DNA of 64,000 nucleotides from positions 28,102-92,101 of the forward strand of contig PWYU01000084.1 in NCBI GenBank assembly GCA_003567725.1, given 5' to 3'. Each line of letters begins with the position of its first letter. Position 1 is the first letter of the stretch. Shown one piece after another: positions 1,168 through 42,677 of the stretch. The notes under the pieces were generated by a model, which saw nothing but the letters and a program-made list of their open reading frames with translations, did no database searches and was not told the origin of the DNA. Origin of the DNA: Syntrophomonadaceae bacterium. Lineage in GTDB: Bacteria; Bacillota; Dethiobacteria; DTU022. A program made the position numbers and the translations under genes.

Positions 1168-1220
1168 ACTGAACAATAATCGCAACTACTCAGCCTATTG
1201 TCTTTGTTGAATGATAAGCG

Positions 1221-12992: not shown

Positions 12993-13077
12993 TGTGCCGG
13001 CTAACTAAACAGCCTGTACTGTTATGATCCAGTAAAGCCTGCTGAAGAAAGCTGAAGCTAAGCCGCTGCATTTTTAG

Positions 13078-13752
<675 letters not shown>

Positions 13753-17763: not shown

Positions 17764-17844
17764 ACAGGGCTGGGGCGTTCAGCGGGAAAAAAGGCCCGCC
17801 GGGATAAAACTCAGAACCCCGTAACTTGGGCAGCGGTGCGGCGG

Positions 17845-17960
17845 GAGACTAAAGCATCAATGGGAACGGTTTGAGCGGCGCCATGGGGACCCTTTGAGCG
17901 TCCCGAAGCGCAGCGTAGGCCGAAGGGAAGACGATGGAACCGTCCCCGTGGCTTACAGAT
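17845..17960 (+). ncRNA. copy A of a three-copy structured leader element (hairpins GGGAC..GUCCC and GACGAUGGAACCGUC, then CCGUGGCUUA)
   Basis: Shares an ordered motif set with 35150..35240 and 36480..36560. Lies in the 235-nt pyrD-pyrF spacer. Confidence 0.4.
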
Positions 17961-17998
17961 TTAAGCCGCTCACTATATTATGAAGGGCAGGAGTTAAA

Positions 17999-18742
17999 AT
18001 GACAGCTAATAATGAGGCCAGAACCGGTTCAGCCAGGGAAAAAGATTTTTCTCCCGGCCAGTTGATTATTGCCCTTGATTATTCTGACCCCGGCCAGGCC
18101 CGGGAACTGGTTGAAAAGCTTAATCCCCTTGGGGTTGGTTTTAAAGTGGGACTGGAGCTATTTTTAGCCGGCGGCCCCCCCCTGGTCAAAGAACTGGCCC
18201 GGCGTTCTCCTGTTTTCCTTGATCTAAAATTCCACGATATTCCCAATACGGTGGCTGCTGCTGTTAAATCAGCGGCCTCTCTTGGGGTGTGGATGCTCAA
18301 TGTCCATGCTGCCGGGGGTAAAAAGATGCTAAAGGCCGCCCGGGAAGCCCTGCAAGATCAGAAGCATAAACCGATTCTTTTAGCCGTAACTGTGTTGACC
18401 AGCATGGATGACCAGGAAATGGCCGAAACCGGCTGCCCCGGTACGACCGGTGAGCGGGTGATCCGGCTGGCCCGCTTAAGCGCTGAATGCGGTTTGGACG
18501 GGGTGGTCTGTTCTCCCCTTGAAATTGATCTGGTTAAAAACCATGTTTCCGGAAATCTGCTCACCCTTACTCCAGGGATCAGGCCCGCCGGCGAAAATGC
18601 CGGCGATCAAGTCCGGATTGCTACCCCGGACAGGGTGATCGAGGCCGGCGGTGATTACCTGGTTGTTGGCAGGCCTGTTACCAGGGCTCCTGATCCTTAC
18701 AAAGCAGTGCAGAACATCTTTGCTGCTATGCAAATTGTTTGA
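17999..18742 (+). CDS. pyrF: orotidine 5'-phosphate decarboxylase
   Basis: IIALDYSD...GFKVGLELF and DLKFHDIPNT motifs. Confidence 0.85.
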   Translation: MTANNEARTGSAREKDFSPGQLIIALDYSDPGQARELVEKLNPLGVGFKVGLELFLAGGPPLVKELARRSPVFLDLKFHDIPNTVAAAVKSAASLGVWMLNVHAAGGKKMLKAAREALQDQKHKPILLAVTVLTSMDDQEMAETGCPGTTGERVIRLARLSAECGLDGVVCSPLEIDLVKNHVSGNLLTLTPGIRPAGENAGDQVRIATPDRVIEAGGDYLVVGRPVTRAPDPYKAVQNIFAAMQIV

Positions 18743-18761
18743 TCAAGTAAAGGAGGATATA

Positions 18762-19346
18762 ATGAAAGATAATCACAACCTTAACCGGTCAAACCTCTTT
18801 GAACTGCTAAAAGAGACCGGGGTTATTATGGACGGGCATTTCCTGCTTACCTCCGGAAGGCATAGCGCCCGTTTTCTGCAGTGTTCTCAACTGATGCAAT
18901 ATCCGGAGCATGCGGAAAAAGTGTGCCGCCTGGTGGCCGCACCCTTTACAGAGAAGCAGATCCATACCGTGATTGGACCTGCCATGGGCGGGGTAATTAT
19001 GGCTTATGAAACAGCCCGGGCCCTGGGGGCAAGGGCGCTCTTTGCCGAGCGTACAGAAGATGGGCTAATGGCCCTGCGGCGTGGTTTCCGGGTTGAAGCA
19101 GGCGAAAGGATCCTGGTGGTGGAAGATGCGGTTACTACGGGCGGTTCGGTCCGCAAGGTCCTTGATTTACTGGAAAAAGCCGGTGCAGAGATTGCGGGGG
19201 TTTCAATTATGATCGACCGGACAGCCGGCAAACTCAAATTTGATGTACCCGTGCACTCCCTTATTTCGATGGAGATTGAATCTTTTACCCCGCAAGAATG
19301 CCCCCTGTGCCGGGACGGTATCCCTCTTTACAGGCCGAAGGGTTAA
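18762..19346 (+). CDS. pyrE: orotate phosphoribosyltransferase
   Basis: PRPP-binding motif VVEDAVTTGGS. ATG at 18762 is preceded by an AAGGAGGA RBS; the upstream part of the track ORF overlaps pyrF and is not coding. Confidence 0.85.
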   Translation: MKDNHNLNRSNLFELLKETGVIMDGHFLLTSGRHSARFLQCSQLMQYPEHAEKVCRLVAAPFTEKQIHTVIGPAMGGVIMAYETARALGARALFAERTEDGLMALRRGFRVEAGERILVVEDAVTTGGSVRKVLDLLEKAGAEIAGVSIMIDRTAGKLKFDVPVHSLISMEIESFTPQECPLCRDGIPLYRPKG

Positions 19347-19472
19347 GCGGGGGAGGGGCAGCCTGCTTGCCAAGACTGATTGCCAGCGGCTTTCATATGG
19401 CAAGAACACTGTGCATTTGAGAGCATTACGTGACAGGAAAATTATTGACTAAACAAGGAGAGCGCTATCCTA

Positions 19473-21644
19473 ATGCAGGAACAAATCTATCAACGTTTAA
19501 GCAAAGAACTAAATATCCCACTTAAACAGGTGACCCAGACGGCCTCCCTGCTCGATGAAGGCAACACGGTGCCGTTTATTGCCCGTTACCGCAAAGAAGT
19601 GACCGGAGGATTAACTGATGAGCAGGTCCGCCTGCTTGAAAATAAGCTGGGCGGTTACCGTAACCTGGAACAGCGGCGAGAAGAAGTGTTCCGCCTGATC
19701 GAGGCCCAGGGAGCGCTTACCGAAGACATCAAAAAACAAATAAATAAAGCTGTTACTGTAACAGAGCTTGACGATCTTTACCGGCCGTTCCGGCCTAAAA
19801 AAAGAACCAGGGCCTCCATAGCCCGGGAAAAAGGACTTGAACCCCTGGCCGCGGCGATTTTAGAAGGTGCTGTCAAGCCGGATGAAGAAGCTGTAAAATA
19901 TATTGATCCCGAAAAAGACCTGGTTGATCAAGCGGCCGTTATCAAGGGTGCTTCTGACATTATTGCCGAAATCATATCTGATGATGCCGCTGTCCGGAAA
20001 GCCCTGCGCCATATTTACCGTAACAAAGGCAGTATTGCAGTGGAAAAAAGAGATGACGCTGCAATCACCACTTATAATGACTATGCCGACTACCAGGAAC
20101 CGCTGGCAAAAATAAAAGGGCACCGGGTTTTAGCTGTCAACAGGGGTGTTAAAGAAAAAGTGCTGGAACAAAAGGTCAACGTTCCGGAGGAAAAGGCTGT
20201 TGCTGTCATGTTTGACAGCTATAGCAATGAAAATCAAAACGAAGATTGCCGGGAAATCATAGCATCAGCTGCTACCGACAGTTACCGGCGTTTAATTCAC
20301 CCTTCCCTGGAAAGGGAGATGTGGCATGAGCTATTTGAAAAAGCGATGGAGGGCGCCCTGGTTGTCTTTAAGGAAAATTTAAAAAAAAGACTGCTGGTAC
20401 CTCCGATCCGCCACCGCAGGGTCCTGGGGTGGGATCCCGGTTACCGGACCGGCTGTAAACTGGCCTGTGTTTCTGAAACCGGCGAGCTTTTAGAAACAGC
20501 GGCTGTTTTCCCCACTGCGCCCCGCAATGACCGGAAAGGGGCAGCGGGGACAGTGCTGCATTTAATGAAAAAGCATCGCATCGATTGTATCGCCATAGGA
20601 AACGGGACTGCCTCCCGGGAAAGCGAAACTTATATAGCTGATCTGATCAAAGAACAGGATCTGACTTTAGAATATACCATCGTTAATGAAGCAGGAGCCA
20701 GTGTCTACTCGGCTTCTCCTGCCGCTAAAAAAGAATTTCCCGACCTGGATGTTGCTGAAAGAAGCGCTGTTTCCATTGCCAGGCGCCTTCAGGATCCCCT
20801 GGCCGAACTGGTTAAAATCGATCCAAAAGCGATCGGGGTAGGCCAGTATCAACATGATATGCCGGCTAAAGAGCTCGATTCAGCCCTGACCGGCACTGTG
20901 GAAAATTGTGTTAACAGGGTTGGGGTTGATTTAAACAGCGCCTCTGCAGCCCTGCTTTCCTATGTAGCCGGAATTAATATCTCGGTGGCCAATAAAATAG
21001 TGCTCAAGAGGAATGAAATTGGCACTTTCAATAACCGGACCCAGCTTTTTGAAGTGCCCGGGCTCGGCCCGAAGGTTTTTAAGCAGTGTGCCGGTTTCCT
21101 GCGCTTGCCTGACAGCGACAACTACTTAGAAAGAAGCGCGGTGCACCCCGAATCATATGAACTGGCTGGAAAGATTATGGTTGAGCTGGAAATAAAACCT
21201 GAAGGGCTGGGCGACCCCGGGGCAGTGCCACCCTTGTCCGGTGAAGACTTAAGGGCGCTGGCCTCCAGCCTTCAAGCGGGAGAGCCAACTGTAAAAGACA
21301 TCCTGGAAGAATTCCGCAAACCGGGCCGTGATCCCAGGGAAGATTTGCAACGGCCGGTTTTTCTCAAGTCGGTTACCGAACTTGATGATCTGGAACCGGG
21401 GATGACCCTGCAGGGTATAGTCCGCAACATCGTCGACTTTGGAGCCTTTGTCGATATTGGGGTTCATCAGGATGGGCTGGTCCATATTTCTGAAATATCC
21501 GAGCGTTATATTAAGCATCCTTTGGAAATCCTGCAAATTGAAGCGGTAGTGCCGGTGAAAATCCTTGCTATTGATCGAGAACGCGGCAGGATATCGCTAT
21601 CGATCAAAGAGGCGGAACGGGAAAAAAAGAATCAAGATGATTGA
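19473..21644 (+). CDS. tex: Tex-like RNA-binding transcription accessory protein
   Basis: IARYRKE motif, YqgF/HhH core and C-terminal S1 domain; 723 aa. Confidence 0.9.
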   Translation: MQEQIYQRLSKELNIPLKQVTQTASLLDEGNTVPFIARYRKEVTGGLTDEQVRLLENKLGGYRNLEQRREEVFRLIEAQGALTEDIKKQINKAVTVTELDDLYRPFRPKKRTRASIAREKGLEPLAAAILEGAVKPDEEAVKYIDPEKDLVDQAAVIKGASDIIAEIISDDAAVRKALRHIYRNKGSIAVEKRDDAAITTYNDYADYQEPLAKIKGHRVLAVNRGVKEKVLEQKVNVPEEKAVAVMFDSYSNENQNEDCREIIASAATDSYRRLIHPSLEREMWHELFEKAMEGALVVFKENLKKRLLVPPIRHRRVLGWDPGYRTGCKLACVSETGELLETAAVFPTAPRNDRKGAAGTVLHLMKKHRIDCIAIGNGTASRESETYIADLIKEQDLTLEYTIVNEAGASVYSASPAAKKEFPDLDVAERSAVSIARRLQDPLAELVKIDPKAIGVGQYQHDMPAKELDSALTGTVENCVNRVGVDLNSASAALLSYVAGINISVANKIVLKRNEIGTFNNRTQLFEVPGLGPKVFKQCAGFLRLPDSDNYLERSAVHPESYELAGKIMVELEIKPEGLGDPGAVPPLSGEDLRALASSLQAGEPTVKDILEEFRKPGRDPREDLQRPVFLKSVTELDDLEPGMTLQGIVRNIVDFGAFVDIGVHQDGLVHISEISERYIKHPLEILQIEAVVPVKILAIDRERGRISLSIKEAEREKKNQDD

Positions 21645-22337
21645 ATGAAAAGAAAACAGAGCATGAGCTTTTTCTTCAGGTGAAACAAAACGCTTTTGAC
21701 CCCTGCTTTTATCCCTGGTGAGCGAAGCGGCGCTAAAGGCGGGCCGGCCCCGGAAAGAAACTAGCCAGGGCATGTAAAAAAGGCCGTGAATAAGCGGTAT
21801 ACCGGTGAAAAGAAGATATTTTCTTCCCTGGGGCATCACTTCCCAGAAACCCTGCTTAAAACTGCGCCAGGCCCTGGAAAAATCCGGGCTGGGCATGTTT
21901 ACTGATATAAATCCTTCTTCATTCACTGCAACCAGCACTTCATCACTGTTTTCCAGGGCGGTTACCGGTTTGCCATCATAATCGGCCCAGATGTGGGTTA
22001 AAGAAACATGTTTCCGGTACGCAATATCCAGCTCCTCCATCAGGGAAGCAAAAAGCAGGAAGCGGGCTTTGCAGTCCCCGGCGCCCATGTTTAATGCTTC
22101 ATTTAATGTAGGAAAATACCAGGGCATACTGTGTACTTCCCAATCATAACTGTAGGGCAGCCTGGCATATACAAACTGCTCGATTTCCAGGGGTGTTTTA
22201 TCTTCCAGTTCCCGGGCATAGTCGCTAACCGCGGCTGGCGCAACCGGCGGATGATATAACCTGTACACACTAAACACTAAATGCAGGGGGTTGGGATACA
22301 TTATAACCAAAAACCACCCCATGAGCATTATGATCAT
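21597..22337 (-). CDS. transglutaminase-like cysteine peptidase domain protein (N-terminal TM)
   Basis: GAGDCKARFLLFASL Cys motif, then THIWADYDGK His/Asp block typical of transglutaminase-like cores. The 3' end overlaps the tex 3' end by 48 nt (convergent). Confidence 0.5.
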   Translation of the reverse strand: MIIMLMGWFLVIMYPNPLHLVFSVYRLYHPPVAPAAVSDYARELEDKTPLEIEQFVYARLPYSYDWEVHSMPWYFPTLNEALNMGAGDCKARFLLFASLMEELDIAYRKHVSLTHIWADYDGKPVTALENSDEVLVAVNEEGFISVNMPSPDFSRAWRSFKQGFWEVMPQGRKYLLFTGIPLIHGLFYMPWLVSFRGRPAFSAASLTRDKSRGQKRFVSPEEKAHALFSFHSIILILFFPFRLFDR

Positions 22338-22835
22338 GATCAGGTTTTTATTGGAAATCTGTTTATGCCGGTTCAGCAGGAGGTTCAGCTCCCTTCTTAC
22401 AGTTTATAAATTGGTCCTGTTCAGCCACTACCGGGCTGCTTTTGCGATAAACTCACCTTAAGCTCTCACCCGGCGGCCGGTTTCTTGCCGGACGGCCCGC
22501 TTCGGGCCTCGCTTCGCCGGCCAATTCCAGGCTTTCACTTAATGCTTGACCCGGGCTTTCATTACGGGTATGCCGGGTTAATTTAAAACAGGCTGATCTT
22601 CCATCATGAAAATGGTAAGAAAAGACAGTATACAGATAGAGATAATTACTTCCTTAAAAGTAATATAAGTGAAAAAAGTGAAAAATGCAATCCGCACCAG
22701 ATCGCTGTGGCTAACCAGGACTTAGTTAACCTTATCCTGGCTTTAAAATGCTTTTGTTTGTAATTGTGATCACTTTTATATACAATGGTGCCAGGGATTT
22801 TTAGCTGGAGAAGATAATTTCGAGGAGGCTGGATT

Positions 22836-24107
22836 ATGAAAGCAAAAGCCCTGACTGTTATAACTGGTGTCCTGCTTCTTACTGCCGCAGCAGCCTGGCT
22901 GTTAAGAGTGGAGTTTGCCTTTTTTAGTAATTTTTATCTCCTCTATCTCGGTTTGCTCCTGGCTTTGCTGGGGCTGACCTTTATTCTGCTGCAATTTATA
23001 TTAGCATCAAGGATAAAAATACTGGAGAGAGGGTTTGGCTTAGACCGGATGTTTAGCTGGCACCGCATTTTTGGTCGGGCCGGTTTGATTATGGTTACCT
23101 TGCATGCGGTGTTGATCGTGGCCTTTCGGTTAAGTTATTTTGGCCAGATCTTTTTTAATGTTTTTATATTTTTAGGAGTGCTGGCTTTGCTGGGTTTTAT
23201 GGTAACCGCCGGGTTGGCCTCGACTTACAAGAAGATCGGTCTGGCTTATGAAACCTGGCGCAACATTCACCTGGCTAACTATGTCCTTTTCCCTGTGGTC
23301 ATGGTTCATGCCTTTTATCACGGCCCACCGGGCTCCTTGCTCTACTACTATCTATATTTACTGGGCCTGCTTTTTTTGGCCGTTATAATCTATCGCCTGG
23401 TGAGGATTATTTCTATGCGCCGCAACCCTTATGAAGTGACTGAAGTCCGGCAGGAAGCAGATGATATCTGGAGCCTGTTTTTTAAAGGTCCCCGCCTGGA
23501 TTTTAAGCCGGGGCAGTTTATGTTTATCCAGCTTTTTAGGGATGGGCAGCTCTCATCTCCCCATCCTTTTACCATATCAGCCAGCCCTACAGCTGAAAAC
23601 CTCTCCATTACCCCCAAAAAATTGGGCGATTTTACGATGACCATCAAGGATACCAGGCCCGGTGACAGAGCCTATATTGATGCTCCGTACGGGGTGTTTA
23701 GCTTCCTTAACGTTGCACCCGGTGAACTGGTATTTATAGCCGGCGGTATTGGCATTACCCCTTTTATGAGCATGCTTCGCTACAGCTATGATCATAAGCT
23801 TGATCAAAAGGTAACTTTATTCTGGGCCAACCGCAGCGAAAAAAATCTCTGTTTTCAGGAAGAACTGGAAACCATGCAAAAAGAAATGCCCGGCCTGAAA
23901 GTAATCCCGGTCATGTCTGATCAACCTGACTGGAGCGGTGAAAAAGGCCATATCAAAGCCCCGGTGCTTATGAATTACCTGGAGTCCCTGGGCAATAAAG
24001 AATATTTTGTATGCGGCCCTCCGGCCATGAGCAGGGCTGTCATCAATGAACTCAAGCAATTAAATGTATCATCTTTAAAAATACACACTGAACTATTTGA
24101 GCTGTAA
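22836..24107 (+). CDS. ferric reductase-like transmembrane protein fused to an FAD/NAD-binding oxidoreductase domain (NOX/FRE-type)
   Basis: Six TM helices with conserved His pairs, the HPFTISASP FAD motif, and GGIGITPF NAD motif. Confidence 0.65.
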   Translation: MKAKALTVITGVLLLTAAAAWLLRVEFAFFSNFYLLYLGLLLALLGLTFILLQFILASRIKILERGFGLDRMFSWHRIFGRAGLIMVTLHAVLIVAFRLSYFGQIFFNVFIFLGVLALLGFMVTAGLASTYKKIGLAYETWRNIHLANYVLFPVVMVHAFYHGPPGSLLYYYLYLLGLLFLAVIIYRLVRIISMRRNPYEVTEVRQEADDIWSLFFKGPRLDFKPGQFMFIQLFRDGQLSSPHPFTISASPTAENLSITPKKLGDFTMTIKDTRPGDRAYIDAPYGVFSFLNVAPGELVFIAGGIGITPFMSMLRYSYDHKLDQKVTLFWANRSEKNLCFQEELETMQKEMPGLKVIPVMSDQPDWSGEKGHIKAPVLMNYLESLGNKEYFVCGPPAMSRAVINELKQLNVSSLKIHTELFEL

Positions 24108-24135
24108 TCATTAATCAGCTGGGAGGGACCGGATT

Positions 24136-25767
24136 TTGAGCGATTTGATTTTTCACAACGGCCGGGTGATTACCATGGAAGAAAGGCCGGCAGAAGCCGA
24201 AGCTGTGGCCGTTAGCGGCGATATAATAGCTGCAGTAGGAAAAAACGCCGATATTTTGAAACTGCAAAATGAAAAGACCAGCCTTATCGATTTGCAGGGC
24301 CGGACGCTGTTGCCGGGCTTCAACGACAGCCATATGCATCTGATTGGTCAGGCCATGACTTCGGAAAAAGCGGATTTACGCACCTGTTCCGGAGTTGATG
24401 AGATCGTAGATGCTGTAAGGGATTTTATCAAAGTTAACGAGGTTGATAAAGGGCACTGGGTTTTCGGTTGGGGTTGGGATCAAAGCCTGTTCAATGAAAA
24501 ACATTTCCCCACCCGTGATGATTTAGATCGGGCTTCTCTTGATCATCCCTTAGCGATTATGCGCACCTGCTGCCATGTTCTGGTGGCTAACACGGCCGCT
24601 TTGAAAGCGGCCGGGATCGATCGCAAAGCTGTTGAGGTCGAAGGTGGTAATATCAGGCTTGATCACCGGGGAGAACCTAACGGGATCCTGGAAGAAAGGG
24701 CTATGAACCTGGTAACAGATTTACAGCCTCCCATGGACAAGGATAAATTAAAAAGCCTGATCAAGATGGCTGCAAAAAAATTCCTGGCAGCCGGCCTGAC
24801 TTCTGTTCAGACTGATGACCTGGCCGGCGCCGGAGTAGAGTGGGCTCCTTTTCTAATTGATGTATACCAGGAGCTGGAAAAATGCGGCGAGCTGCCCCTG
24901 CGGGTTAATTTGCAGGTGCTTTTGCCTGAAATAACATTGCTGCGTTCTTTTCTTGATCAGGGTTACCGCACCGGGCAGGGCGGTGACTATTTTAAAATAG
25001 GGCCGCTCAAACTCTTGACAGATGGTTCGATCGGCGGCCGCACTGCTCTATTATCCAACCCTTATGAAGGCAGCCCTGGTGGCTGCGGGGTAGCGGTTCT
25101 GGAACGCGGAAAAGTTGAAGAACTGGTTAACCTGGCCACTGAAAATGGGATGCAATGCGCTGTGCATGCCATTGGTGATGCGGCGGTCAAGATGGTGCTT
25201 GAAATATATCAGGAGGCAGTCAGGCTCTATCCTCACCCCGATCCGCGCTTCCGGATCATTCATGTTTCCATGGCCAGTCCCAGGATCCTGGACCGCTTTG
25301 AAAAACAGGAAGTTATTGCTGATATTCAGCCCTCTTTCACTCCTTCTGATTATCTTCTGGTGGACAAGCATCTGGGGCCCAAACGGGCAGCCTGGACCTA
25401 TCGCTGGAAGGAGTTTGCTGATCGGGGGATAAAAATGGGCGGCGGTTCTGACTGCCCGGTGGAAAACTATGAACCCCTGGAAGGCATCCATGCCGCCGTG
25501 AACAGGCAGGATCGAAACGGTAATCCTCCGGGAGGTTGGTATCCCCAGCAATGCTTAAGCCTTGAGGAAACCCTTTACATATATACCATGGGTTCTGCTT
25601 ACTGCACTTATGAAGAAAATGAAAAAGGCAGCATTGTCCCGGGAAAGCTGGCCGATCTGGTTGTTCTTTCCGAAGATATTGTCAGCGCTGATCCGGCCCG
25701 GATCGCAGATTTAAAAGTTGATCTTACTGTGGTAGGCGGTGAAATTGCTTTCAGCAGGGTTTTATAA
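24136..25767 (+). CDS. amidohydrolase family protein (amidohydrolase-3 / YtcJ-like)
   Basis: GFNDSHMHL metal-binding motif. TTG start with GGGAGGGA RBS. Confidence 0.7.
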   Translation: MSDLIFHNGRVITMEERPAEAEAVAVSGDIIAAVGKNADILKLQNEKTSLIDLQGRTLLPGFNDSHMHLIGQAMTSEKADLRTCSGVDEIVDAVRDFIKVNEVDKGHWVFGWGWDQSLFNEKHFPTRDDLDRASLDHPLAIMRTCCHVLVANTAALKAAGIDRKAVEVEGGNIRLDHRGEPNGILEERAMNLVTDLQPPMDKDKLKSLIKMAAKKFLAAGLTSVQTDDLAGAGVEWAPFLIDVYQELEKCGELPLRVNLQVLLPEITLLRSFLDQGYRTGQGGDYFKIGPLKLLTDGSIGGRTALLSNPYEGSPGGCGVAVLERGKVEELVNLATENGMQCAVHAIGDAAVKMVLEIYQEAVRLYPHPDPRFRIIHVSMASPRILDRFEKQEVIADIQPSFTPSDYLLVDKHLGPKRAAWTYRWKEFADRGIKMGGGSDCPVENYEPLEGIHAAVNRQDRNGNPPGGWYPQQCLSLEETLYIYTMGSAYCTYEENEKGSIVPGKLADLVVLSEDIVSADPARIADLKVDLTVVGGEIAFSRVL

Positions 25768-26159
25768 ATGACGCTTTAATAACCCGAACAGGACTAATGG
25801 CCCCGGTTTTTTTGTTGACTGATTAGTGCTGCAAGGGCTGGCTCTTGTTTTATAATAACCGCCCTGGCGGGGAAGCCCTTTTGAAGCCTTTTCTGACGGC
25901 ATTTTGTTTTGCTGCGGTTACTATAGAATCTTTTCTGCCGGTGCTGCCGGACGGCCTGAAGTTAGCCGTCATACTTATTAAATATAATCATGTCTGCTCA
26001 GCCTGTGTCGTCTGGTATTGCTGAAGCAGGCTAAGCAGTTCATAATATCATGTAATGGCCTTATTTAAATTTTCTACCGGCCTGTGCGGTTTGTAAAATA
26101 TAACTGAAAAAGGGTGGATAACAATTACAAAAATATCAGCGCTTGGACGACCGATTGAA

Positions 26160-28356: not shown

Positions 28357-28566
28357 ATCTTTAATTGATATAATCTGAATATATAAACTTCGGTTTTAGG
28401 CTGGCCGGCCGGCCAGGGTATGATATAATAGCTTTAACCGACCGACCGGTCAGCCGGTTTTTTGCGGCATTTGCCGGCCGGGTTTGGAAAATAAGAAAAA
28501 GTTTGCAGCTTAAGCCTGTCATCAATCAATCCTTTAGGCCTGCTGCTCTTTTAGGAGATAGCTAGC

Positions 28567-31500
28567 ATGAATTTGGCGAAAATGGCTGTTAAACGGCCTG
28601 TTGCTACCGGCGCTATTCTGGTTTTAATCCTCGTTATCGGGCTGGTCAGCCTCAGTCAAAGCCCCCTCGATCTTTTGCCCGACATTGAGGCTCCCGTCCT
28701 GGCTGTGATTACAGCGTTGCCCGGCAGTTCTCCCCAGGAATCTTTAGAGCTGGTGACCCGCCCGATTGAGGAGAGTGTTTCTACTGTAGGCGGGGTAACC
28801 GGTATAAATTCCATTTCCCGGGAAAATACGTCCCTGGTTATCGTGCTTTTCGACTGGGGCGCTGATGTGAAAAATTTGCGCGAAGATATCAGGATGCGCA
28901 TGGATCTGGTTGATCTGCCCGATGATGCCAGCCGCCCGATGATTCTTGAATTTGATCCCACCCTGATGCCCATCATGCAGATTTCAGCCAGCGGCGCTGA
29001 TGATCCGGCCCGCCTGACCGCCTGGCTTCAAGAAACAGCCGCTCCCAGGCTGGAATCCATCCGCGGTGTGGCCGAAGTACAGATCCAGGGCGGCGTGGAA
29101 GAGGATATTTTCGTCCGGGCTAACCCTAAAGAAATGGCCGAGTATGAAATATCCTTTGGCCAGATTGCCAGCGTATTAAGAACAAGTTTGATGGATCTGC
29201 CGGCCGGGATTGTCGATCTGGAATACCGCCAGGTCCGGCTTCGCTTCCTGGGACGTTATGCAGAACCGGAACTGCTTTCCGATTTGATTGTAGGTTTTAA
29301 AGTTGATCAAGAAGAGTTGGACCGGTTAATCGGTGAGGAAATTGAACTCGATCTAAACCGCCTGATTGAGGCTCAGGATTTTGGTTTTGCGGGCAGTGGT
29401 TCAGGTGGTATGGGCAGCCTGCCGGTTCGGGAGTTATACTGGGATGATATTTTTGACTTTAACTCAGCTGTAGTTGTCGGAGAAAGTATAATATTACCAA
29501 TAACAGATCGGGTTGCCGGTAGGGAAGATCTGGATCTTGAAAGGAGCATGCGCCTCTTTACAGTTAATCCGGAGATAACCCTTCAGGCTGAAAGCAATTA
29601 CCTGAATCTTTCTTTATCTTCACTGGGCCTGATGCCTGTTTCTGTTGATGAGGCCCCAAATGACAGCAGCTTTCCGGTCAAACTGGAGCAATTATGGCTC
29701 ATAGAATATGCCTCCTGGGATCAGGATCAGGTCATTGTTCCCCTTGACCCTGCGGCGTTGCAGGAAAATAATATTTCTTCTGCGGGACTGACCAGGTTAG
29801 CTGAACGTCATCCCCTGATAACGCAGGCAGCACCCGGCTACATTTTAATTAGCTTTCATCAAAACTGGCCTGAAATACGCGAAGAGCCGCTAATATCCAT
29901 TCCAGACCTGCAGGGTTTGCTCTCTGATTTGGAAAGTGGAGCCAGGCAGGGTTTAAATGAAGCTTCCGGCGGCCTGGAAGATTTAATGATTGAACTGACC
30001 ACAACGATGCTGGGCGGGAATACCGGCGGAAGCAGCACCGGAGCCAACCCTTTTTCTGGGGTGGATCTGGGTGATGATATCCCTGTTGATCCGGTTACTC
30101 TGGGCATGGTTGCTGAAATTGAAAAAACGCAGTATGAACCCTCCTCTTTTTCTCGCTATAACATGCAGCCAAGCATCGGCCTTTCCATTCAAAAAGAAGG
30201 GGATGCCAATACCGTAACCGTAGCTCGTCAGGTCAGGGAGGTATTAGATGAGCTCTCTGAAGAGAGTATTGGCACTTTTTCTCAGATCAGCTTTGATACT
30301 ATTTTCGACCAGGCTGAAGAAATCGAGTTTGCCCTGGCCGATTTAGCCCGCTCACTGCTTGGCGGAGCGGTCCTGGCTATTGTTGTGCTGCTTTTGTTCT
30401 TGAAAAACTGGCGTACCACCATGTTTATCGGCCTGAGCATTCCTTCAGCAATTATCGCCACTTTTACCCTGCTTTATTTTACCGATATAACCATCAACCT
30501 GATGACCTTGGGCGGGCTGGCCCTGGCGGCCGGGATGCTGGTTGATAATGCCATTGTTGTGAGCGAAAATATTTACCGGCAGTACCAGCTGGGTGAAAAT
30601 CCCAATGATGCAGCCATTAAAGGGGCCCGGGAAGTAGCCGGTGCGATCACCGCTTCCACCCTGACCACAATCAGTGTTTTCTTTCCCGTAGTATTTCTCT
30701 CCGGCCTGGCCGGACAGCTGTTCTGGGAGTTTGCCCTCACTGTTGGTTGTGCTATCCTGGCTTCATTATTTATGGCCCTTACGGTTATACCTCTGTTGGC
30801 ATCCCGCACCTTGCAGCGCAGGCACGAACAGGGATCAAAGCTTTCCAGCCTGCCCCGGCTCCCTTCCTACCGCCGGGCTCTAAAGTTTACCCTCCATCGG
30901 CCCTGGCTTGTGCTTCTCATTACAGTTATCTTCGTAGCAGGTGGCGCGCTCGGTTTTACCACCCTGGGGACAGAACTTTTCCCCAGCCCGGAGGAATCGT
31001 CTTTTACCGTAAATATTAGCCTGCCGCCGGGGTCTACCCTGGAGACAACCGATGCCTATGTGTCTGAAATTGAATCAATATTAGAAGACCAGCCAGATGT
31101 AGCTAATTATTCAGTGCGGACCGGCGGATCGGGGTTTATGGGTATGAGAGGCGGAGGAGGAGCTTCAAATGAAGCCCGGATCAGGGTTGATCTGGATCCC
31201 GCTGCCCTGGGCGAAATTGATCGTGTCATAGAAGAAGTCAGGTCCCGGGCTGACCGGTTACCCTATGAAGCAGTTAATACTTATTCCAGCCAGTCTGTGC
31301 TTGATACTGCCGGTTTTGAGGCCCGCCTTGAGCTGGTTGTCAGCGGTGATAACCTGGAGGAGGTTACCAGGATAACCGGCCAGGCGGCGGATATATTAGC
31401 CGAACATCCCCGCTTCAGCGATGTTCAGTCCTCGCTGGAAGAAAACCGGCCCGAGGTGCATATTCGTCTGGATCACAGCGAAGCCCTGCAGAAAGGGGTG

Positions 31501-32553
31501 ACTTTATCCCAGGTAGCCAGTGCTGTTCGGGAGTCTTTGGAAGGGATTCCGGTCAGCAGGATTGAAACCGCAGAGGGGATCATGGAAATTGTCCTCGGGT
31601 ATGAAAAACAGGAAATCAATACCCTTGAAGATTTAAGTGAAGTCGGGTTTTATACTGCCGGTGGGGAATTTGTGCGGATCAGCGAAGTGGCCGAACTGGA
31701 AGAAGCTTTTGGGCCCAGAAGCATTCCCCGGGAGAACCGGAGGATCGTCGGCCAGATTGAAGCCAGTTATGGAGATCTTGACCTGGGCACGGCAGCCGAG
31801 GAAGCCTTTGCCGCCCTGGAGCAGATTGCCCTGCCTGACGGCTATACCATTAACACTGCCGGCAGCGTCGTGGTAATGGACGAAGTGCTGGATGAGCTGG
31901 CGCTGATCCTGATTGTTGCCATGGTCCTGGTTTACCTGGTTATGGCCGCCCAGTTTGAATCTCTTTTGCATCCCTTTATTATCATTTTAACTTTACCTAT
32001 GGCTTATGCCGGATCGGTGCTGGCCTTAATGATCACCGGTAACAATATCAGCGTACCGGCGCTGATCGGCTTGATCGTCTTATCGGGTATCCTGGTTAAT
32101 GATGGAATTATCATGGTCGATTATATCAACCAGCAGAGAAGGCTCTATGGGCTGGAGCTAAACCGGGCCATACTGGAAGGGGCGGCCGCCAGACTGCGTC
32201 CAATTATGATGACCACAGCTACCACCGCCCTTGGTCTTTTCCCCCTGGCTTTAGGAATTGGTGAAGGAGCTGAACTGCAGGCCCCGATGGCCATAACCAT
32301 AATTGGAGGACAGTTCACGGGAACCCTTCTTTTACTGCTGGCCGTTCCTGCTATCTATAAAATGGTAACCAGGGAACACCCTGATCAGGGTGCAGCTAAA
32401 GCCGCCCTTGCTTACACCAGCCCTGCCGGGGATGATAGGGGTAAACCCCTGATGAAAATGGTTTTACGAATGGTTATTGTGTTAATCCTGGCCGCCCTTA
32501 TTCTCATACTGTTCAATGTAACCGGCCAGGAAACTTTTATGGTAATTCGGTAA
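28567..32553 (+). CDS. RND (AcrB/HAE-type) efflux permease, unusually long (1328 aa), with a ~300-aa insertion in the first periplasmic loop
   Basis: N-terminal RND signature (MNLAKMAVKRPVATGAILVLILVIGL...DLLPDIEAPVL) and 12-TM pseudo-repeat architecture. No adaptor or OMF gene is adjacent. Confidence 0.8.
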   Translation: MNLAKMAVKRPVATGAILVLILVIGLVSLSQSPLDLLPDIEAPVLAVITALPGSSPQESLELVTRPIEESVSTVGGVTGINSISRENTSLVIVLFDWGADVKNLREDIRMRMDLVDLPDDASRPMILEFDPTLMPIMQISASGADDPARLTAWLQETAAPRLESIRGVAEVQIQGGVEEDIFVRANPKEMAEYEISFGQIASVLRTSLMDLPAGIVDLEYRQVRLRFLGRYAEPELLSDLIVGFKVDQEELDRLIGEEIELDLNRLIEAQDFGFAGSGSGGMGSLPVRELYWDDIFDFNSAVVVGESIILPITDRVAGREDLDLERSMRLFTVNPEITLQAESNYLNLSLSSLGLMPVSVDEAPNDSSFPVKLEQLWLIEYASWDQDQVIVPLDPAALQENNISSAGLTRLAERHPLITQAAPGYILISFHQNWPEIREEPLISIPDLQGLLSDLESGARQGLNEASGGLEDLMIELTTTMLGGNTGGSSTGANPFSGVDLGDDIPVDPVTLGMVAEIEKTQYEPSSFSRYNMQPSIGLSIQKEGDANTVTVARQVREVLDELSEESIGTFSQISFDTIFDQAEEIEFALADLARSLLGGAVLAIVVLLLFLKNWRTTMFIGLSIPSAIIATFTLLYFTDITINLMTLGGLALAAGMLVDNAIVVSENIYRQYQLGENPNDAAIKGAREVAGAITASTLTTISVFFPVVFLSGLAGQLFWEFALTVGCAILASLFMALTVIPLLASRTLQRRHEQGSKLSSLPRLPSYRRALKFTLHRPWLVLLITVIFVAGGALGFTTLGTELFPSPEESSFTVNISLPPGSTLETTDAYVSEIESILEDQPDVANYSVRTGGSGFMGMRGGGGASNEARIRVDLDPAALGEIDRVIEEVRSRADRLPYEAVNTYSSQSVLDTAGFEARLELVVSGDNLEEVTRITGQAADILAEHPRFSDVQSSLEENRPEVHIRLDHSEALQKGVTLSQVASAVRESLEGIPVSRIETAEGIMEIVLGYEKQEINTLEDLSEVGFYTAGGEFVRISEVAELEEAFGPRSIPRENRRIVGQIEASYGDLDLGTAAEEAFAALEQIALPDGYTINTAGSVVVMDEVLDELALILIVAMVLVYLVMAAQFESLLHPFIIILTLPMAYAGSVLALMITGNNISVPALIGLIVLSGILVNDGIIMVDYINQQRRLYGLELNRAILEGAAARLRPIMMTTATTALGLFPLALGIGEGAELQAPMAITIIGGQFTGTLLLLLAVPAIYKMVTREHPDQGAAKAALAYTSPAGDDRGKPLMKMVLRMVIVLILAALILILFNVTGQETFMVIR

Positions 32554-32555
32554 GC

Positions 32556-32584
32556 GCCCCCTATTTTTAGAAGGGGGCATTTTG
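32556..32584 (+). terminator. intrinsic terminator after the RND gene (GCCCCCT...AGGGGGC, then ATTTT)
   Basis: Perfect 7-bp GC stem directly after the stop codon. Confidence 0.5.
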
Positions 32585-32698
32585 AAATCCAACTTTTTAT
32601 AGCACCGGTTTGTCCGGGTTAGGGTCAGTAAATCCGGTTTATTATTGTGGCTTTTAAGGAGCATTATGTTTAAGAGGACTGAAAGGAGCATTTAAACC

Positions 32699-33322
32699 AT
32701 GGCCCCGGTTAAGAACAATAAAAATCAGAACAGTAGCAAGCGCGACCAGATTCTCCATGCGGCTGTTGACAAGTTTTTGGAAAAAGATTTTTACCAGGTG
32801 ACGGTTACTGAAATAGCCGAGCTGGCCGGTGTGGGTAAAGGAACGGTCTATGAATATTTCTCCAGTAAAGAAGAGCTTTTCAAAGAAAGCTTTTCTTACT
32901 GTGCCGGCATTTACCTGCAGACCTTTAAGATAAATTTTGCCGAGCTGGCTTCAGCCAGGATTACTATGGAAGATATTTTAGTCACCCATCTGAATTTGAT
33001 CAAGGAAAACCGCAACAAGCTGCATCTGCTGTTCAATGAACGGCCGCAGAACCTTAAAGAGCTGCAAGCATGGATTCTTGAACAGCGCCGGGAACTGCTT
33101 AATGAACTAACCGGCTTGATCAGTGAAGGGATCAGGCTTGGCGAAGTGCGATCCGATTTAAACGTTGACATGGCCGCCCGCCTGTTCCTGGCATTGAATC
33201 AACAGGTCATTGGAGAAATGGTGCTGCTCGATAATATTGCAGTGGAAGAAGCGCAGTTAAAAGAACTGCTTGATCTGTACTGGAACGGTATCGGTAAATC
33301 AGCGCTGTGGCAGGGCCATTAA
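32699..33322 (+). CDS. TetR/AcrR family transcriptional regulator
   Basis: HTH motif VTVTEIAELAGVGKGTVYEYF. Confidence 0.8.
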   Translation: MAPVKNNKNQNSSKRDQILHAAVDKFLEKDFYQVTVTEIAELAGVGKGTVYEYFSSKEELFKESFSYCAGIYLQTFKINFAELASARITMEDILVTHLNLIKENRNKLHLLFNERPQNLKELQAWILEQRRELLNELTGLISEGIRLGEVRSDLNVDMAARLFLALNQQVIGEMVLLDNIAVEEAQLKELLDLYWNGIGKSALWQGH

Positions 33323-33355
33323 AGGGGGACCGGCTTTATAGCCCGCATCCCCCTT
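33322..33355. terminator. bidirectional terminator between the convergent TetR and flavodiiron genes (AAGGGGGA...TCCCCCTT)
   Basis: 8-bp inverted repeat with nested GGCT/AGCC hairpin; flanking A and T runs. Confidence 0.45.
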
Positions 33356-33396
33356 AAGTATGCAATATTATAAAATTAATGGTTACTCTTCAGTCA

Positions 33397-34611
33397 CTAC
33401 CGGGTTGTTGATGGAACTGCCAGGGCTGTGCCAATTTCCTGCCCGTAAGCTTTGGCGGCGGCAACTGCTTCTTCGTCCGGATTCCAGAGCATCCTCAGCC
33501 CCTGGTCATTGATCAGTTCAAAGCCCGCTTCATCCAGCAGCCCGTTGATCAATTTGACCGATTCACCGCTCCAGCCGTAACAGCCAAAAGCACAACCTTT
33601 TTTCTGCTGGAAATTAAGGCCTTTGGCTATTTCCATAAATGAGGCAATTGAGTGCAAAATACCTTTGTTAATGGTGGGCGACCCTACCACTATGCCTTTA
33701 GATTTGAAGGTTTCTGTAACTATATCGTTAATATCGGACCGGGCGGCATTATAAAGCTTAATAGTGATTTCAGGGTTGCTTTGCCTGATGCCCTTAGCAA
33801 TCGCTTCAGCGGCCCTTCTGGTGCCGTTCCACATGGTATCGTATATAATCGTAACCTGGTTTTCCTGGTATGCGTCTGCCCATTCCATGTATTTATTAAC
33901 AATCTGCAGGGGATCCTGACGCCAGATAATTCCGTGGCTGGGACAGATCATCTCCACCGGCAGTTCTAAGCCTACAACCTCCTTGATTTTTGCGGTAACC
34001 AGTTTGCTGAAAGGAGTGAGGATATTGGCGTAATATTTGATAGCCTCCCGGTACAGTTCCTCCTGGTCCACCAGGTCGTTGTACATATGCTCAGAGGCAT
34101 AATGCTGACCGAAAGCATCGTTGGGAAAGAGAATATTGTCTCCGGTGAGGTAGCAAAACATGCTATCGGGCCAGTGCAGCATTTTTGCCTCCACAAAAAT
34201 CAGCTCTCTGTCCCCAAGGTTTAACTTGTCTCCAGTTTTAACTGGCTGGAAATTCCAATCCTGGTGGTACTGGCCCCGCAGCGATTTGACAGCAGCCTTG
34301 CTGCAGTAGACCGGTGTTCCCGGTATTTCTCTAAGTAATTCACTTAATGCTCCGCTGTGATCAATTTCGCCGTGATTGGCCACAATGTAGTCGATTTCTT
34401 TTAAATCGATTTCTTTTTTGAGGTTGTTAACAAACTCTTCTGCAAAAGGCTTCCATACAGTATCGATGAGGGCTGTTTTTTCACTGCCCCTGATTAAATA
34501 GGAATTATAGCTGGTGCCTTTATGAGTGCTAAGCTCTTCGCCGTGAAATTTACGCAGCTCCCAATCAATTTTTCCAACATAGGTGATGTTATCTTTAATT
34601 TTAAATGACAT
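33397..34611 (-). CDS. flavodiiron protein (FprA-type O2/NO reductase: MBL-like diiron domain plus flavodoxin domain)
   Basis: Diiron motif HGEIDHSGAL (HxExDH) and C-terminal flavodoxin-like domain. Start chosen at MSFKIKDN, which has a GGAGG RBS. Confidence 0.8.
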   Translation of the reverse strand: MSFKIKDNITYVGKIDWELRKFHGEELSTHKGTSYNSYLIRGSEKTALIDTVWKPFAEEFVNNLKKEIDLKEIDYIVANHGEIDHSGALSELLREIPGTPVYCSKAAVKSLRGQYHQDWNFQPVKTGDKLNLGDRELIFVEAKMLHWPDSMFCYLTGDNILFPNDAFGQHYASEHMYNDLVDQEELYREAIKYYANILTPFSKLVTAKIKEVVGLELPVEMICPSHGIIWRQDPLQIVNKYMEWADAYQENQVTIIYDTMWNGTRRAAEAIAKGIRQSNPEITIKLYNAARSDINDIVTETFKSKGIVVGSPTINKGILHSIASFMEIAKGLNFQQKKGCAFGCYGWSGESVKLINGLLDEAGFELINDQGLRMLWNPDEEAVAAAKAYGQEIGTALAVPSTTR

Positions 34612-34673
34612 TGATAAAACCTCCATAATAATATTTTTTCCGGGGAATAATCATTACCACTAAACTATATCCT

Positions 34674-35000
34674 TTATGATCGAATCATGACCAGCATCAT
34701 TTTAAATCTTTCATTGGCCTTAAGGGCGTGCGGCACATCGGCTGGCATAATGATCATTTCTCCTTCCTTTACCTGATGTGACTGGCCGGTAATAATTATT
34801 TCAGCGGTTCCATCGAGAATGCAAACCATGGCATCAAAGGGAGCGGTATGTTCGCTCAAACCCTGGTCCTGGTCAAAAGCAAAGAGGGTAACATTGCCGG
34901 TCTCCTTTTTAAATATTTCCTTACTAACGATGGCACCATCCTGGTATTCAGTGAGGCTTTTTAAGTTTAAAGTCTGTGCCGTTAGTTTATTCTCACTCAT
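34674..35000 (-). CDS. cupin domain protein
   Basis: Single cupin barrel with a conserved HxH....E....H-like spacing (LSEHTAPFD...PADVPHAL). Confidence 0.55.
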   Translation of the reverse strand: MSENKLTAQTLNLKSLTEYQDGAIVSKEIFKKETGNVTLFAFDQDQGLSEHTAPFDAMVCILDGTAEIIITGQSHQVKEGEMIIMPADVPHALKANERFKMMLVMIRS

Positions 35001-35149
35001 TTTAATACCCTCCCGGGATCCTTAATTTATAACCATATCAGTTAAGTATATTTTAACACATTGTTCGCAGCCGGACAACCATTATTTGAGCTGCTTTGGT
35101 TATTCAAAGCTTGTATTAACTGATCTGTAAGTGCAGGTCAGCCTTCCAA

Positions 35150-35240
35150 TTTGTAACGGGGACGGTTCGAACGTCCCTTAAAGCATAGCTTTAAGACCGG
35201 AGGGGAGACGGTGGAACCGTCCCCTGTGGCTTAGAGCATC
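35150..35240 (+). ncRNA. copy B of the three-copy structured leader element (hairpins GGGACG-GUUCGAA-CGUCCC; CUUAAAGC-AUA-GCUUUAAG; GACGG-UGGAA-CCGUC)
   Basis: Three consecutive perfect hairpins, then CCUGUGGCUUAG. Lies ~130 nt upstream of sppA on the same strand. Confidence 0.4.
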
Positions 35241-35371
35241 AAGTAAATATTATGAGAAGACAGGGCCGGCATGACGACGAGTGAATCTGGTTTCAACCGG
35301 CAGGCAGGAAATCATTATTCGCTGTCAAAGTTAAAGCAGATGAACTCAATCATAAGTAGGAGTGGTTAGCA

Positions 35372-36304
35372 GTGAAGAAGAAAAAAATAATTATAATTTC
35401 TTTGGTAGCCCTGGCGGTGGTGGTAGTTTTAGCTTTGCCATTCATTAACGGCACAGATAGCCGGATAGAGCGAAATGCAAGGGCTGAAGACTGGATTGCT
35501 GTCATCACCCTGCAGGGAGCGATTCAGGAAGGAATGAGCGGCTTCTTTGCCGGGGGAATATCGCCGGATTATGTTTACCATCAGCTCCAGCGCGTTTTAA
35601 ATGAACCCCGGGTTGAAGGGGTGGTATTAAGGGTAGAAAGTCCCGGTGGATCAATAGCTGCTTCTCAGGAAATAGCGGCCATGGTGAGGAACTTTGAAAA
35701 ACCGATCGTGGTTTCCATGGCTGATATGGTTGCCTCTGGAGGCTACTATATCTCCGCTCCGGCCCAGGGCATAGTAGCCCAGCCCGGAACATTGACCGGC
35801 TCAATTGGAGTGATCAGCAGTTTAATGAACACGGAAGAGCTTTATGAAAAGCTGGGCATCGAGGTTGAAACGATCAAGTCCGGAAAGCATAAAGATATGT
35901 TCAGCCGCGCGTTAACTGATGAAGAAAGGCAGCTGATGCAGGATATCTCCGATCAGGCTTACGATCAGTTTGTCATGGAGGTGGCGCAAGGCCGCAGCAT
36001 GGAGGTTCAGCAAGTGAAAGAACTGGCTACCGGTGAACTTTTCCTCGGCAGCCAGGCTAAAGAGCTCGGCCTGGTTGACCGCCTGGGAGGAATAGATGAA
36101 GCCATTGAATACCTGGCGGAATTAAACGATCTGGATAATCCGGTTCGCTACGAATTTCCGGCCCCGCCTGTGTGGACTCAGCTGTTTGATTATGGCTACA
36201 GCGCTCTGGCTTCGCTGGAAAGGGCTTTTATTAACCCGGAGATTATTTTGCTGGAAAAACTAAAGGAAGGGGTGCCTCCTGATATTCGTTACCAGGTTAG
36301 ATAA
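35372..36304 (+). CDS. sppA: signal peptide peptidase SppA (S49 family, 36K type)
   Basis: S49 fold with catalytic Ser region ADMVASGGYYIS and N-terminal TM. GTG start after an AGGAGTGG RBS. Confidence 0.75.
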   Translation: MKKKKIIIISLVALAVVVVLALPFINGTDSRIERNARAEDWIAVITLQGAIQEGMSGFFAGGISPDYVYHQLQRVLNEPRVEGVVLRVESPGGSIAASQEIAAMVRNFEKPIVVSMADMVASGGYYISAPAQGIVAQPGTLTGSIGVISSLMNTEELYEKLGIEVETIKSGKHKDMFSRALTDEERQLMQDISDQAYDQFVMEVAQGRSMEVQQVKELATGELFLGSQAKELGLVDRLGGIDEAIEYLAELNDLDNPVRYEFPAPPVWTQLFDYGYSALASLERAFINPEIILLEKLKEGVPPDIRYQVR

Positions 36305-36335
36305 GCCCGGCCAGGAGTGCGAGCCGGTTTTTTTA
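36305..36335 (+). terminator. weak intrinsic terminator after sppA (CCGGC...GCCGG then T7)
   Basis: Short stem followed by TTTTTTT. Confidence 0.35.
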
Positions 36336-36479
36336 CCGGCTGGAAGCATGATTGTTAAAAAAGGGCGACTGTCCTGGCGATCTGCGAGCACTGTTTTCGC
36401 CTCAGGCAGTTTCAGCAACAACCCGGCAGTGGCTGTAAGGATTTAAAAAGCCTTGTTTTATGGGCTTAAGCGTTTGATG

Positions 36480-36560
36480 CTTTGCTTTCGTTAAAACGTC
36501 TCTTAAAGCATAGCTTTAAGGCCGAAGGAAAGACGGTGGAACTGTTCGTGCGGCTTAGTT
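36480..36560 (+). ncRNA. copy C of the three-copy structured leader element
   Basis: Identical 8-bp hairpin CUUAAAGC-AUA-GCUUUAAG. The third hairpin is retained through G-U wobbles (GACGG...CUGUU), an RNA-level covariation. Confidence 0.4.
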
Positions 36561-36583
36561 TTGATCAAAGGAGGAAACGGCTA

Positions 36584-42655: not shown

Positions 42656-42677
42656 TTGGGTCAGCCTCCTACCCGAT

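Follow-up and report, generated by a model that had tools for sequence, protein, structure and literature searches.

A 64,000-nucleotide stretch of contig PWYU01000084.1 (hereafter the window), from the genome of a Syntrophomonadaceae bacterium, carries three copies (A, B and C) of a short structured repeat, lying ahead of pyrF, sppA and a Yip1-like gene, and raises the question of whether this repeat is a regulatory RNA dedicated to those genes or an element of some other nature. An earlier reading of the sequence, referred to here as the original prediction, had proposed an undescribed cis-regulatory leader composed of three hairpins. Our analysis points to a different answer: the three copies are most probably instances of the ~95-nt inner module, or core, of a family of non-coding miniature inverted-repeat transposable elements (MITEs) that has spread through anaerobic Bacillota, and not a regulatory RNA tied to particular genes.

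The existence of the repeat is beyond dispute. A covariance model built from relatives matches copy A at 17870-17961 (79.9 bits, E = 4e-16), copy B at 35143-35239 (64.3 bits, E = 1.5e-12) and copy C at 36469-36563 (39.6 bits, E = 6e-07), all on the + strand and in the places originally predicted. The same scan detects no further full copies in the 64-kb window, so that the count of three is right for this stretch, but the family as a whole has hundreds of members. A repeat finder groups copies A, B and C as one family (D3 and D4), and their alignment yields a common ordered block on the + strand (...ACGTC-C..AAGC.TAGC..AG.CCG.AGG..AGACG.TGGAAC.GT....G.GGCTTA). GACGGTGGAACCGTC, with up to three mismatches, is matched seven times in the window, and CTTAAAGCATAGCTTTAAG four times, against 0.83 and 0.07 matches expected from shuffled sequence; chance resemblance of the three copies is excluded. 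The ordered motif set of the original prediction is thereby recovered, except in copy C, from which the 5' arm of hairpin I is missing. Likewise, hairpin II is identical in B and C, as had been stated, but these two share a variant, and copy A carries a different hairpin II, the family-standard CCGAAGCGCAGCGTAGG. Of the three, B is fairly intact, whereas A has suffered damage and C is truncated.

The nature of the element becomes apparent once its boundaries are set by comparing copies inside single genomes. Two kinds of shell can be distinguished, each 141-148 bp in total and made up of terminal inverted repeats, lineage-specific arms and the conserved core. Shell 1 has the ends GTAACTRCTCAG ... 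CTGAGYAGTTAC and is flanked by perfect 8-bp direct repeats in 15 of the 20 elements with both ends, two more showing seven of eight matching positions. Shell 2 has the ends YRCTACAGCG ... CGCTGTAGYR, and its YTAN flanks are identical over 4 nt in 6 of 17 elements and match at three of the four positions in 8 of 17. Inverted repeats of the IS66 family begin with GTAA, and its members generate 8-bp direct repeats (PMC11946415); for ISDge4, which belongs to the ISBst12 group of this family, the published ends are GTGACTACTCAGCA / GTAACTGCTCAGCA, with a direct repeat of 8 bp (PMC12898284). The ends and 8-bp duplications of shell 1 match these published features of ISDge4, whereas shell 2 does not fit the IS66 family. 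The same core is found in both shells, with homology running slightly past its long helix P1 (WAGCGRAGMC), and many copies, A and C included, are devoid of recognizable ends. At the family level we thus find terminal inverted repeats, target duplication, small non-coding dispersed copies and site polymorphism, the hallmarks of a MITE.

The distribution of the family is equally broad. Genomes and metagenomes of Desulfotomaculia, Syntrophomonadia, Dethiobacteria and Clostridia together contain the ~95-nt core at more than 200 places. In a collection of species-representative genomes, a 24-nt degenerate pattern for the 3' half (CCGNAGGNNAGACGNTGGAACNGT) identifies more than 108 stretches among the matches listed, with hosts that include Desulfoscipio geothermicus DSM 3669, Pelotomaculum, Desulfocucumis, several Syntrophomonadaceae, Dethiobacter, Geosporobacter ferrireducens IRF9 and Clostridiaceae bacterium 35-E11. 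As such a scan fixes the 3' half by construction, it was repeated on metagenome contigs with a pattern for the 5' half only (GGGGACGGTTCGAGCGTCNCC), which is found on more than 120 contigs among the matches listed, 43 of the matches being cut by contig ends. The 3' half, GGGAAGACGATGGAACYGTCCCC, hardly varies in this second, independent set; hence, both halves are conserved without ascertainment bias. Genome bin PWGO01 holds the element on at least 15 contigs, and many matches lie at extreme contig ends, as expected for a repeat that breaks assemblies. The further homologs and the covariation (see below) that the original prediction called for both exist.

Comparison with close relatives reveals a patchy occupancy of the corresponding sites. 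One of them, L233 (Yip1 92%), which was compared at sites B and C, has the core at site B (74.3 bits), where P3 is of the standard type (GAAGCGCAGCGAAGG) and the left end, GTAACTGCTCAG, is intact; at site C it keeps the spacer around the site and has no core (covariance model and alignment A3). In L234 and L235 (Yip1 85%) the core is present at neither site, and the spacer at C is ~90 nt shorter. At site A, the pyrD-pyrF spacer spans 235 nt in the window and 160, 90 and 52 nt in L236 (PyrF 83%), L237 (PyrF 72%) and L238 (PyrF 72%), respectively, with no core in any of the three. The sequences compared thus show the window copies to be lineage-specific and to have arrived or been reshaped not long ago, since close relatives are without them. 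The unusual P3 of copy B recurs exactly in copy C, which suggests that the latter arose within the lineage as a partial copy or through gene conversion.

The genes next to the element are no more constant. Domain matches agree with the originally proposed names: pyrD (DHO_dh, 16810-17763) and pyrF (OMPdecase, 17999-18742) surround copy A, copy B lies between a cupin gene and sppA (Peptidase_S49, 35372-36304), and copy C between sppA and the Yip1 gene (36584-37198). The distance from the end of the element to the start codon is ~41 nt for pyrF, 137 nt for sppA and 26 nt for the Yip1 gene. Across the family, when each insertion site is counted once, crude open reading frame (ORF) calls place 103 of 114 copies between genes. 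Elements are found upstream of, downstream of and antisense to genes, their neighbors are functionally unrelated, and there is no preference for the stop-proximal or the start-proximal side (medians of 75 and 80 nt). A terminator scan of the + strand finds no terminator-like site at or after copies A, B and C, and no platform that would sequester a start site was seen there. In L080, a related Syntrophomonadaceae contig with the P3 variant of the window, the element flanks a PhzF-family gene that has an acyl-CoA dehydrogenase and an isocitrate dehydrogenase gene on either side; L080 was considered as a syntenic locus and rejected, the P3 variant being common to both and the locus different.

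Two structures of the core were compared on 75 non-redundant cores (alignment A2). The long-range fold consists of P1, in which GCCAUGGGGACGGUUC pairs with GAACCGUCCCCGUGGC, followed by a small internal loop, P2 (CGUC with GACG) and P3 (NCC...GGN' with a GNA-type tip). The sense strand of the core is thus shown to form a helix of 16-17 bp that leads, through a small helix, to a three-way junction from which two hairpins extend, a short one and one whose length varies greatly. This fold is 95.8% paired in A2, compared to 28-52% in slid controls, its first P3 pair covaries (AU 28, CG 28, UA 8), and RNAalifold predicts it independently. The independently 5'-anchored metagenome set, whose alignment was fitted to the model, is 98.0% paired, with 44 AU, 15 UA and 8 CG at the first P3 pair. 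The three-hairpin fold of the original prediction reaches 88% pairing and shows no excess covariation. In 33 of 72 sequences one pair of its hairpin I cannot form, the varying base being forced opposite an invariant G and covarying with another partner, and the top pair of hairpin III, put forward as a shared feature, closes in only 3 of the 75 family members. Being inferior in both pairing and covariation, the three-hairpin fold was rejected. Hairpins I and III might possibly form an alternative (kinetic) conformer, given that the GACG and CGUC segments are repeated; the bases involved never vary.

Sequence conservation is not confined to the helices, for the unpaired GGGAA and the G/A-rich internal loops are conserved as well. 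Between P3 and an invariant GGGAAGACG, the core accommodates anything from 6 nt up: CCGAAG, CCACCA, CCGATA, a small extra hairpin or a 40-80-nt hairpin (GGGGACATTCC...GGTGTGTCCCC). In single-sequence folding, copy B reaches -44.3 kcal/mol (z = -4.72), and the signals of copies A (z = -1.53) and C (z = -0.60) are both weak. A TRAP- or Hfq-like binding array made of the pentamer (GNAGS) repeats was also considered, purely as a speculation, and set aside.

The pattern of substitutions indicates that the two strands of the core are not equivalent. Paired columns contain 95 G-U versus 16 A-C cells, and C>T changes outnumber G>A changes in them by 61 to 18 in alignment A2 and by 44 to 17 in A6, with equal numbers of C and G sites; G>A changes are common in unpaired columns. 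Hence, a change is tolerated if it leaves a wobble pair on the sense strand, and not if it would pair only on the other strand, with an effect size that is uncertain because the cells are not independent events. The contention that G-U pairs mark this strand, first drawn from copy C, thus extends to the family. Orientation points the same way: between co-directional genes there are 59 sense and 15 antisense copies (p = 2.6e-07), and the downstream gene lies on the same strand in 102 cases versus 35. A U-rich window (at least 5 of 8 positions) within 30 nt past the hairpin is seen in 77 of 142 antisense readings and in 19 of 142 sense readings, because the shell arm 5' of P1 is A-rich. Being strand-specific, the core is probably co-transcribed with its neighbors and constrained as RNA. 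The original prediction had also held that copies in both orientations would favor a DNA repeat over a functional RNA. Both orientations do occur, and by that yardstick the family is a dispersed DNA repeat with signs of constraint at the RNA level.

Taken together, these observations suggest a plausible history for the three copies. Shell 1 would be mobilized in trans by a DDE transposase of the ISBst12 group, and copies A, B and C would be co-transcribed with pyrF, sppA and the Yip1 gene. The element may be tolerated mainly in the direction that gives an RNA hairpin with no U-tail; when it is inverted, the U-rich tract after the hairpin would tend to terminate transcription, and antisense insertions into operons would then be lost. 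Copies A and B would form a stable hairpin in their transcripts, conceivably a processing or stability site, and would not exert ligand- or signal-dependent control. By analogy with the Correia, ERIC and REP elements, the expected effect would be a site for a double-strand RNase or an altered mRNA stability.

Several readings compete with that of a MITE family. Hundreds of copies next to unrelated genes, antisense and 3'-side positions included, are hard to reconcile with a riboswitch-like three-hairpin leader controlling pyrF, sppA and the Yip1 gene, and so are terminal repeats with target duplications, and orthologous leaders that lack the element in close relatives. That all three copies lie on the + strand, 26-137 nt upstream of start codons, that Rfam offers no match and that copy B folds far better than its shuffles is what recommends this possibility; yet none of the three comes with a terminator or a start-site sequestering platform, the covariation contradicts the fold and copy C is short of a third of the element. 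Association with a gene family, conservation at orthologous sites and an expression platform are thus all wanting, and we consider such a leader exceedingly improbable, so that this part of the original prediction does not survive. Nor does it seem at all likely that the repeat acts as a hairpin in single-stranded DNA, either moved by an HUH enzyme in the manner of REP/REPIN or IS200/IS605 elements or serving as a counterpart of a single-strand origin, with an orientation bias set by replication direction. DNA hairpins do tolerate G-T wobbles, the sense strand has a positive GC skew in 72 of 106 and 28 of 47 loci, CTAC/GTAG in both shell ends recalls REP heads and both stem arms are often duplicated symmetrically. 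Perfect 8-bp target duplications and inverted ends are, however, the signature of DDE-type transposition and are not made by HUH enzymes; the 8-bp duplications, usual here, are foreign to REP and REPIN sequences, the shell ends match an IS66-family element, the plasmid collection, home of single-strand origins, returns no match, and, where skew and gene direction conflict, the element follows the genes slightly more often (15 versus 8).

A more serious contender is a core that functions as an RNA module (protein-binding, RNase-processing or antitermination), is held by purifying selection, rides MITE shells and has a real cis effect on pyrF, sppA and the Yip1 gene, which we regard as unlikely. 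Its parts would be the long helix, the G/A-rich internal loop, the three-way junction with the invariant GGUUCGAGCGUC and GGGAAGACGAUGGAAC, and the stem of free length. The core is near-invariant across several classes and the shell arms differ, but near identity across classes is also expected from horizontal spread of a young mobile element. The conserved unpaired GGGAA and G/A-rich internal loops, and a variable-length stem at a fixed position, as in many structured RNAs, argue for function; against it, the window lineage has plain Watson-Crick pairs in the place of the P3 purine loop, and in one element of L080 (1316-1487) the whole of P3 and the joining region is replaced. Sense-strand pairing appears selected and orientation is 4:1 in favor of sense, but there is no association with a gene class, and copies are gained and lost between close relatives. 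The reading is kept alive by the conserved interior, its presence in two shells with different ends, the symmetric duplication of arms and a core-less arm at 1182-1256 of the window (see below). In a related and similarly doubtful version, the core would be a selected single-stranded module, most likely RNA, that at least two unrelated shells picked up and spread across Bacillota classes.

The MITE interpretation has weaknesses of its own, which should be set against it. No window copy has both terminal repeats or a target duplication, so that membership of the family rests on the core, with a decayed left end for copy B only. A search of the fetched loci for an autonomous insertion sequence with matching ends (end pairs spaced by 350-4000 bp) yielded none, and the mobilizing transposase is accordingly deduced from published end sequence. 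Furthermore, the interior of the element is better conserved than its arms and is common to two shells, whereas ordinary MITEs keep their ends, and a purely selfish element leaves this conserved interior unexplained. The orientation bias could derive in part from replication direction, as most Bacillota genes follow it, and the comparison of loci in which the gene majority conflicts with local GC skew (15 elements with genes, 8 with skew) is not significant. Finally, crude ORF calls underlie the context statistics.

Searches of existing collections are in keeping with a repeat family that is apparently undescribed, even if its kind (MITEs transcribed as hairpins) is known. At gathering thresholds, Rfam 15 has no match over the element in the whole window or in 15 typical loci, and with E values up to 10 nothing over one typical full-length element, in line with the original claim that it belongs to no known RNA family. 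In E-value mode around the window copies there is one overlap, that of group-II-D1D4-4 with the 5' part of copy A (17780-17913; 19 bits against a threshold of 49), which was treated as a chance match. The core strings occur in no paper of the searched library, nor does ISBst12 together with MITE, and literature searches for the terminal-repeat strings and for MITEs of Clostridia, Desulfotomaculum, Syntrophomonas and Pelotomaculum returned nothing relevant. BLAST against the plasmid and phage collections gave no match to the element, and there is one match in IMG/VR. A tRNA or T-loop identity was also entertained, as GGUUCGAG is similar to a T-loop and the sequence allows a four-arm pairing, and was discarded: ARAGORN makes no call in the window and eight loci, the loop register is off by one, and the four-arm alternative rests on invariant bases only.

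In copy A, the core module occupies 17880-17952 on the + strand (model match and alignment A2), with an uncertain right boundary (17952-17969). The 5' arm of P1 (17880-17895) is damaged, reading GGGGACCCTTT in place of GGGGACGGTTC; it is followed by P2 (CGTC at 17899-17902 with GACG at 17930-17933), the P3 hairpin (17903-17919), the joining purines CCGAAGGGAA (17920-17929) and the 3' arm of P1 (17936-17952). A partial duplicate of the 5' arm, ATGGGAACGGTTTGAGCG, read directly in the sequence, precedes the copy at 17860-17877 (+ strand); arm duplications of this sort are also seen in L024, L037, L041 and L096. The core of copy B (35153-35230, + strand) is the best preserved of the three and comprises P1 (35153-35168 with 35213-35230), P2 (35172-35175 with 35207-35210), the lineage variant of P3, CCTTAAAGC-ATA-GCTTTAAG (35176-35196), and the joining segment CCGGAGGGGA (35197-35206). 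A decayed left terminal inverted repeat of the type matched to ISDge4, TTAACTGATCTG, lies at 35116-35127 (+ strand), as deduced from alignment A4 with L233, in which the intact end stands at this position. In the partial copy C (36490-36558, + strand; model match and alignment A3), P2, the same P3 as in B and the joining purines are kept; the 3' arm, GGAACTGTTCGTGCGGC, is mutated and the 5' arm is gone.

Other traces of the family are present in the window. At 1182-1256 (+ strand) there is a left arm of a core-less shell of the same element lineage, GCAACTACTCAG...GTCTTTGTTGAATGATAAGCGGCGCCGCGGGG, recognized by alignment with L080 (2722-2945). Its stem (1223-1247) has a 7-nt loop and is followed by T6, a terminator-like hairpin just past the ORF at 478-1167 (terminator scan and ORF calls). 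Since this arm forms such a hairpin without the core, the core occupies the position of the hairpin loop. A possible degraded fragment of the 3' arm, CTGGAACTGTACCGGCTTAGCTTTAAGCC, lies at 1338-1385 (+ strand), weak and below model detection (repeat families D7 and I2, alignment A8), and similar 3'-arm pieces at 60276-60323 (+ strand) and 13045-13109 (- strand) align to the 3' arm and GGCTTAG tail of copies A-C; on sequence resemblance, all three may be further degraded pieces of the element.

The structure of individual elements elsewhere is also of note. Symmetric duplication of the stem arms, in the form [a][a] core [a'][a'] and up to arrays of at least five units, was seen in L024, L037, L041, L096, L135 and L190 (e.g. 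L041, ~202-282; L096, 7077-7488). The duplicated arms read (GGAGCCATGG)n ... (CCCATGGCGTA)n in L024, L037, L041 and L096, and the inserted GGGGACATTCC hairpin behaves alike. Heptamer arrays (GTTAGCG / CGACTAAC) flank some core-only copies (L058, L064, L088 and L009). The L080 element at 1316-1487 is full-length, with YRCTACAGCG ends and CTAA flanks, and unrelated sequence replaces its P3 and joining region, the arms and P1 being kept. In Geosporobacter ferrireducens (L066, 4690-4900), a core-only copy is surrounded by a 16-nt direct repeat, CTAAATAAAAAGAAAG, that fits the target duplication of neither shell.

A small reading frame was considered as well, with AAGGGAAGACG-AUG as ribosome site and start codon. 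In copy A (17934-18002), AAGGGAAGACG-ATG opens a frame of 22 codons whose TGA overlaps the ATG of pyrF (ATGA), and the corresponding GTG of copy C (36536) shares its frame with the Yip1 ORF. Both are probably coincidental, for the frame differs between shells, and the peptides vary between them beyond MEPSP, which corresponds to the P1 arm. Among the fetched loci there are also T-box leaders and a pan motif (L015, 7360-7619; L030, 3647-3916; L004, 402-499), and in L015 the element separates the T-box leader from the sequence downstream of it.

A second palindromic repeat, GGGACACGGGGACAGGTCCCTTGTCCCAG, has three copies in the window (42253-42295, 42560-42596 and 42620-42656), one of them inverted, and two of the copies form a 37-nt inverted pair with 23 nt in between. 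Its arm, CACGGGGACAGGTC, is similar to the P1 arm of the main element, and model R1 gives it 39 and 38 bits, on two strands, via the stem alone. A GGGGACA...TGTCCCC hairpin akin to this repeat sits inside the core in several metagenome copies. Lastly, a tandem 12/18-nt repeat (GAACCGGAGCCx) at 12400-12603 lies within an ORF and codes for a low-complexity stretch rich in Pro, Glu and Asp.

The identification of the family has practical consequences. It removes a tempting riboswitch candidate from annotation, it accounts for breaks at the element in metagenome-assembled genomes of Bacillota from soda lakes, serpentinites and the subsurface, and it provides a covariance model, together with end and duplication signatures, for masking or tracking the element. 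It also supplies a clear example of MITEs of the ISBst12/IS66 type in Bacillota. More generally, it poses the question of why the interior of a MITE should be conserved above its arms, be common to two shells and have its pairing constrained on the transcribed strand. If the core were functional as RNA, it would be a case of transposition spreading a regulatory or processing module: a mobile RNA element from which the operons that receive it would gain a processing site, a stability element or a one-way terminator.

Bacterial MITEs that are transcribed as hairpins include Correia/NEMIS in Neisseria, ERIC/IRU in enterobacteria, RUP and BOX in pneumococcus, and bcr1 in Bacillus cereus. Like them, the present element is non-coding and 100-200 bp long, has terminal inverted repeats and target duplications, occurs in many intergenic copies, often in operons, forms a long imperfect hairpin and shows insertion polymorphism between relatives. 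Unlike them, it spans several Bacillota classes, has no sequence similarity to any of them, and its interior (GGGGACGGTTCGAGCGTC ... GGGAAGACGATGGAACCGTCCCC) is more conserved than its arms and recurs in two shells that differ in their ends and target duplications. The ends of shell 1 (GTAACTRCTCAG) and its 8-bp duplication are those published for ISDge4, but, in contrast to insertion sequences of the ISBst12 group, it lacks a transposase gene and measures ~145 bp versus ~1.5 kb. With REP, BIME and REPIN sequences it has in common that it is a short, GC-rich, palindromic intergenic repeat with an orientation bias and, presumably, co-transcription with its neighbors; REP sequences, however, do not have such terminal inverted repeats or target duplications, whereas the present element usually has 8-bp duplications. 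On the other hand, it resembles riboswitches and other cis-regulatory leaders in its 5'-leader position in the window, its strand-specific fold, its covarying pairs and its variable-length stem, and departs from them in being multi-copy and mobile, with no fixed gene partner, no conservation at orthologous sites and no expression platform.

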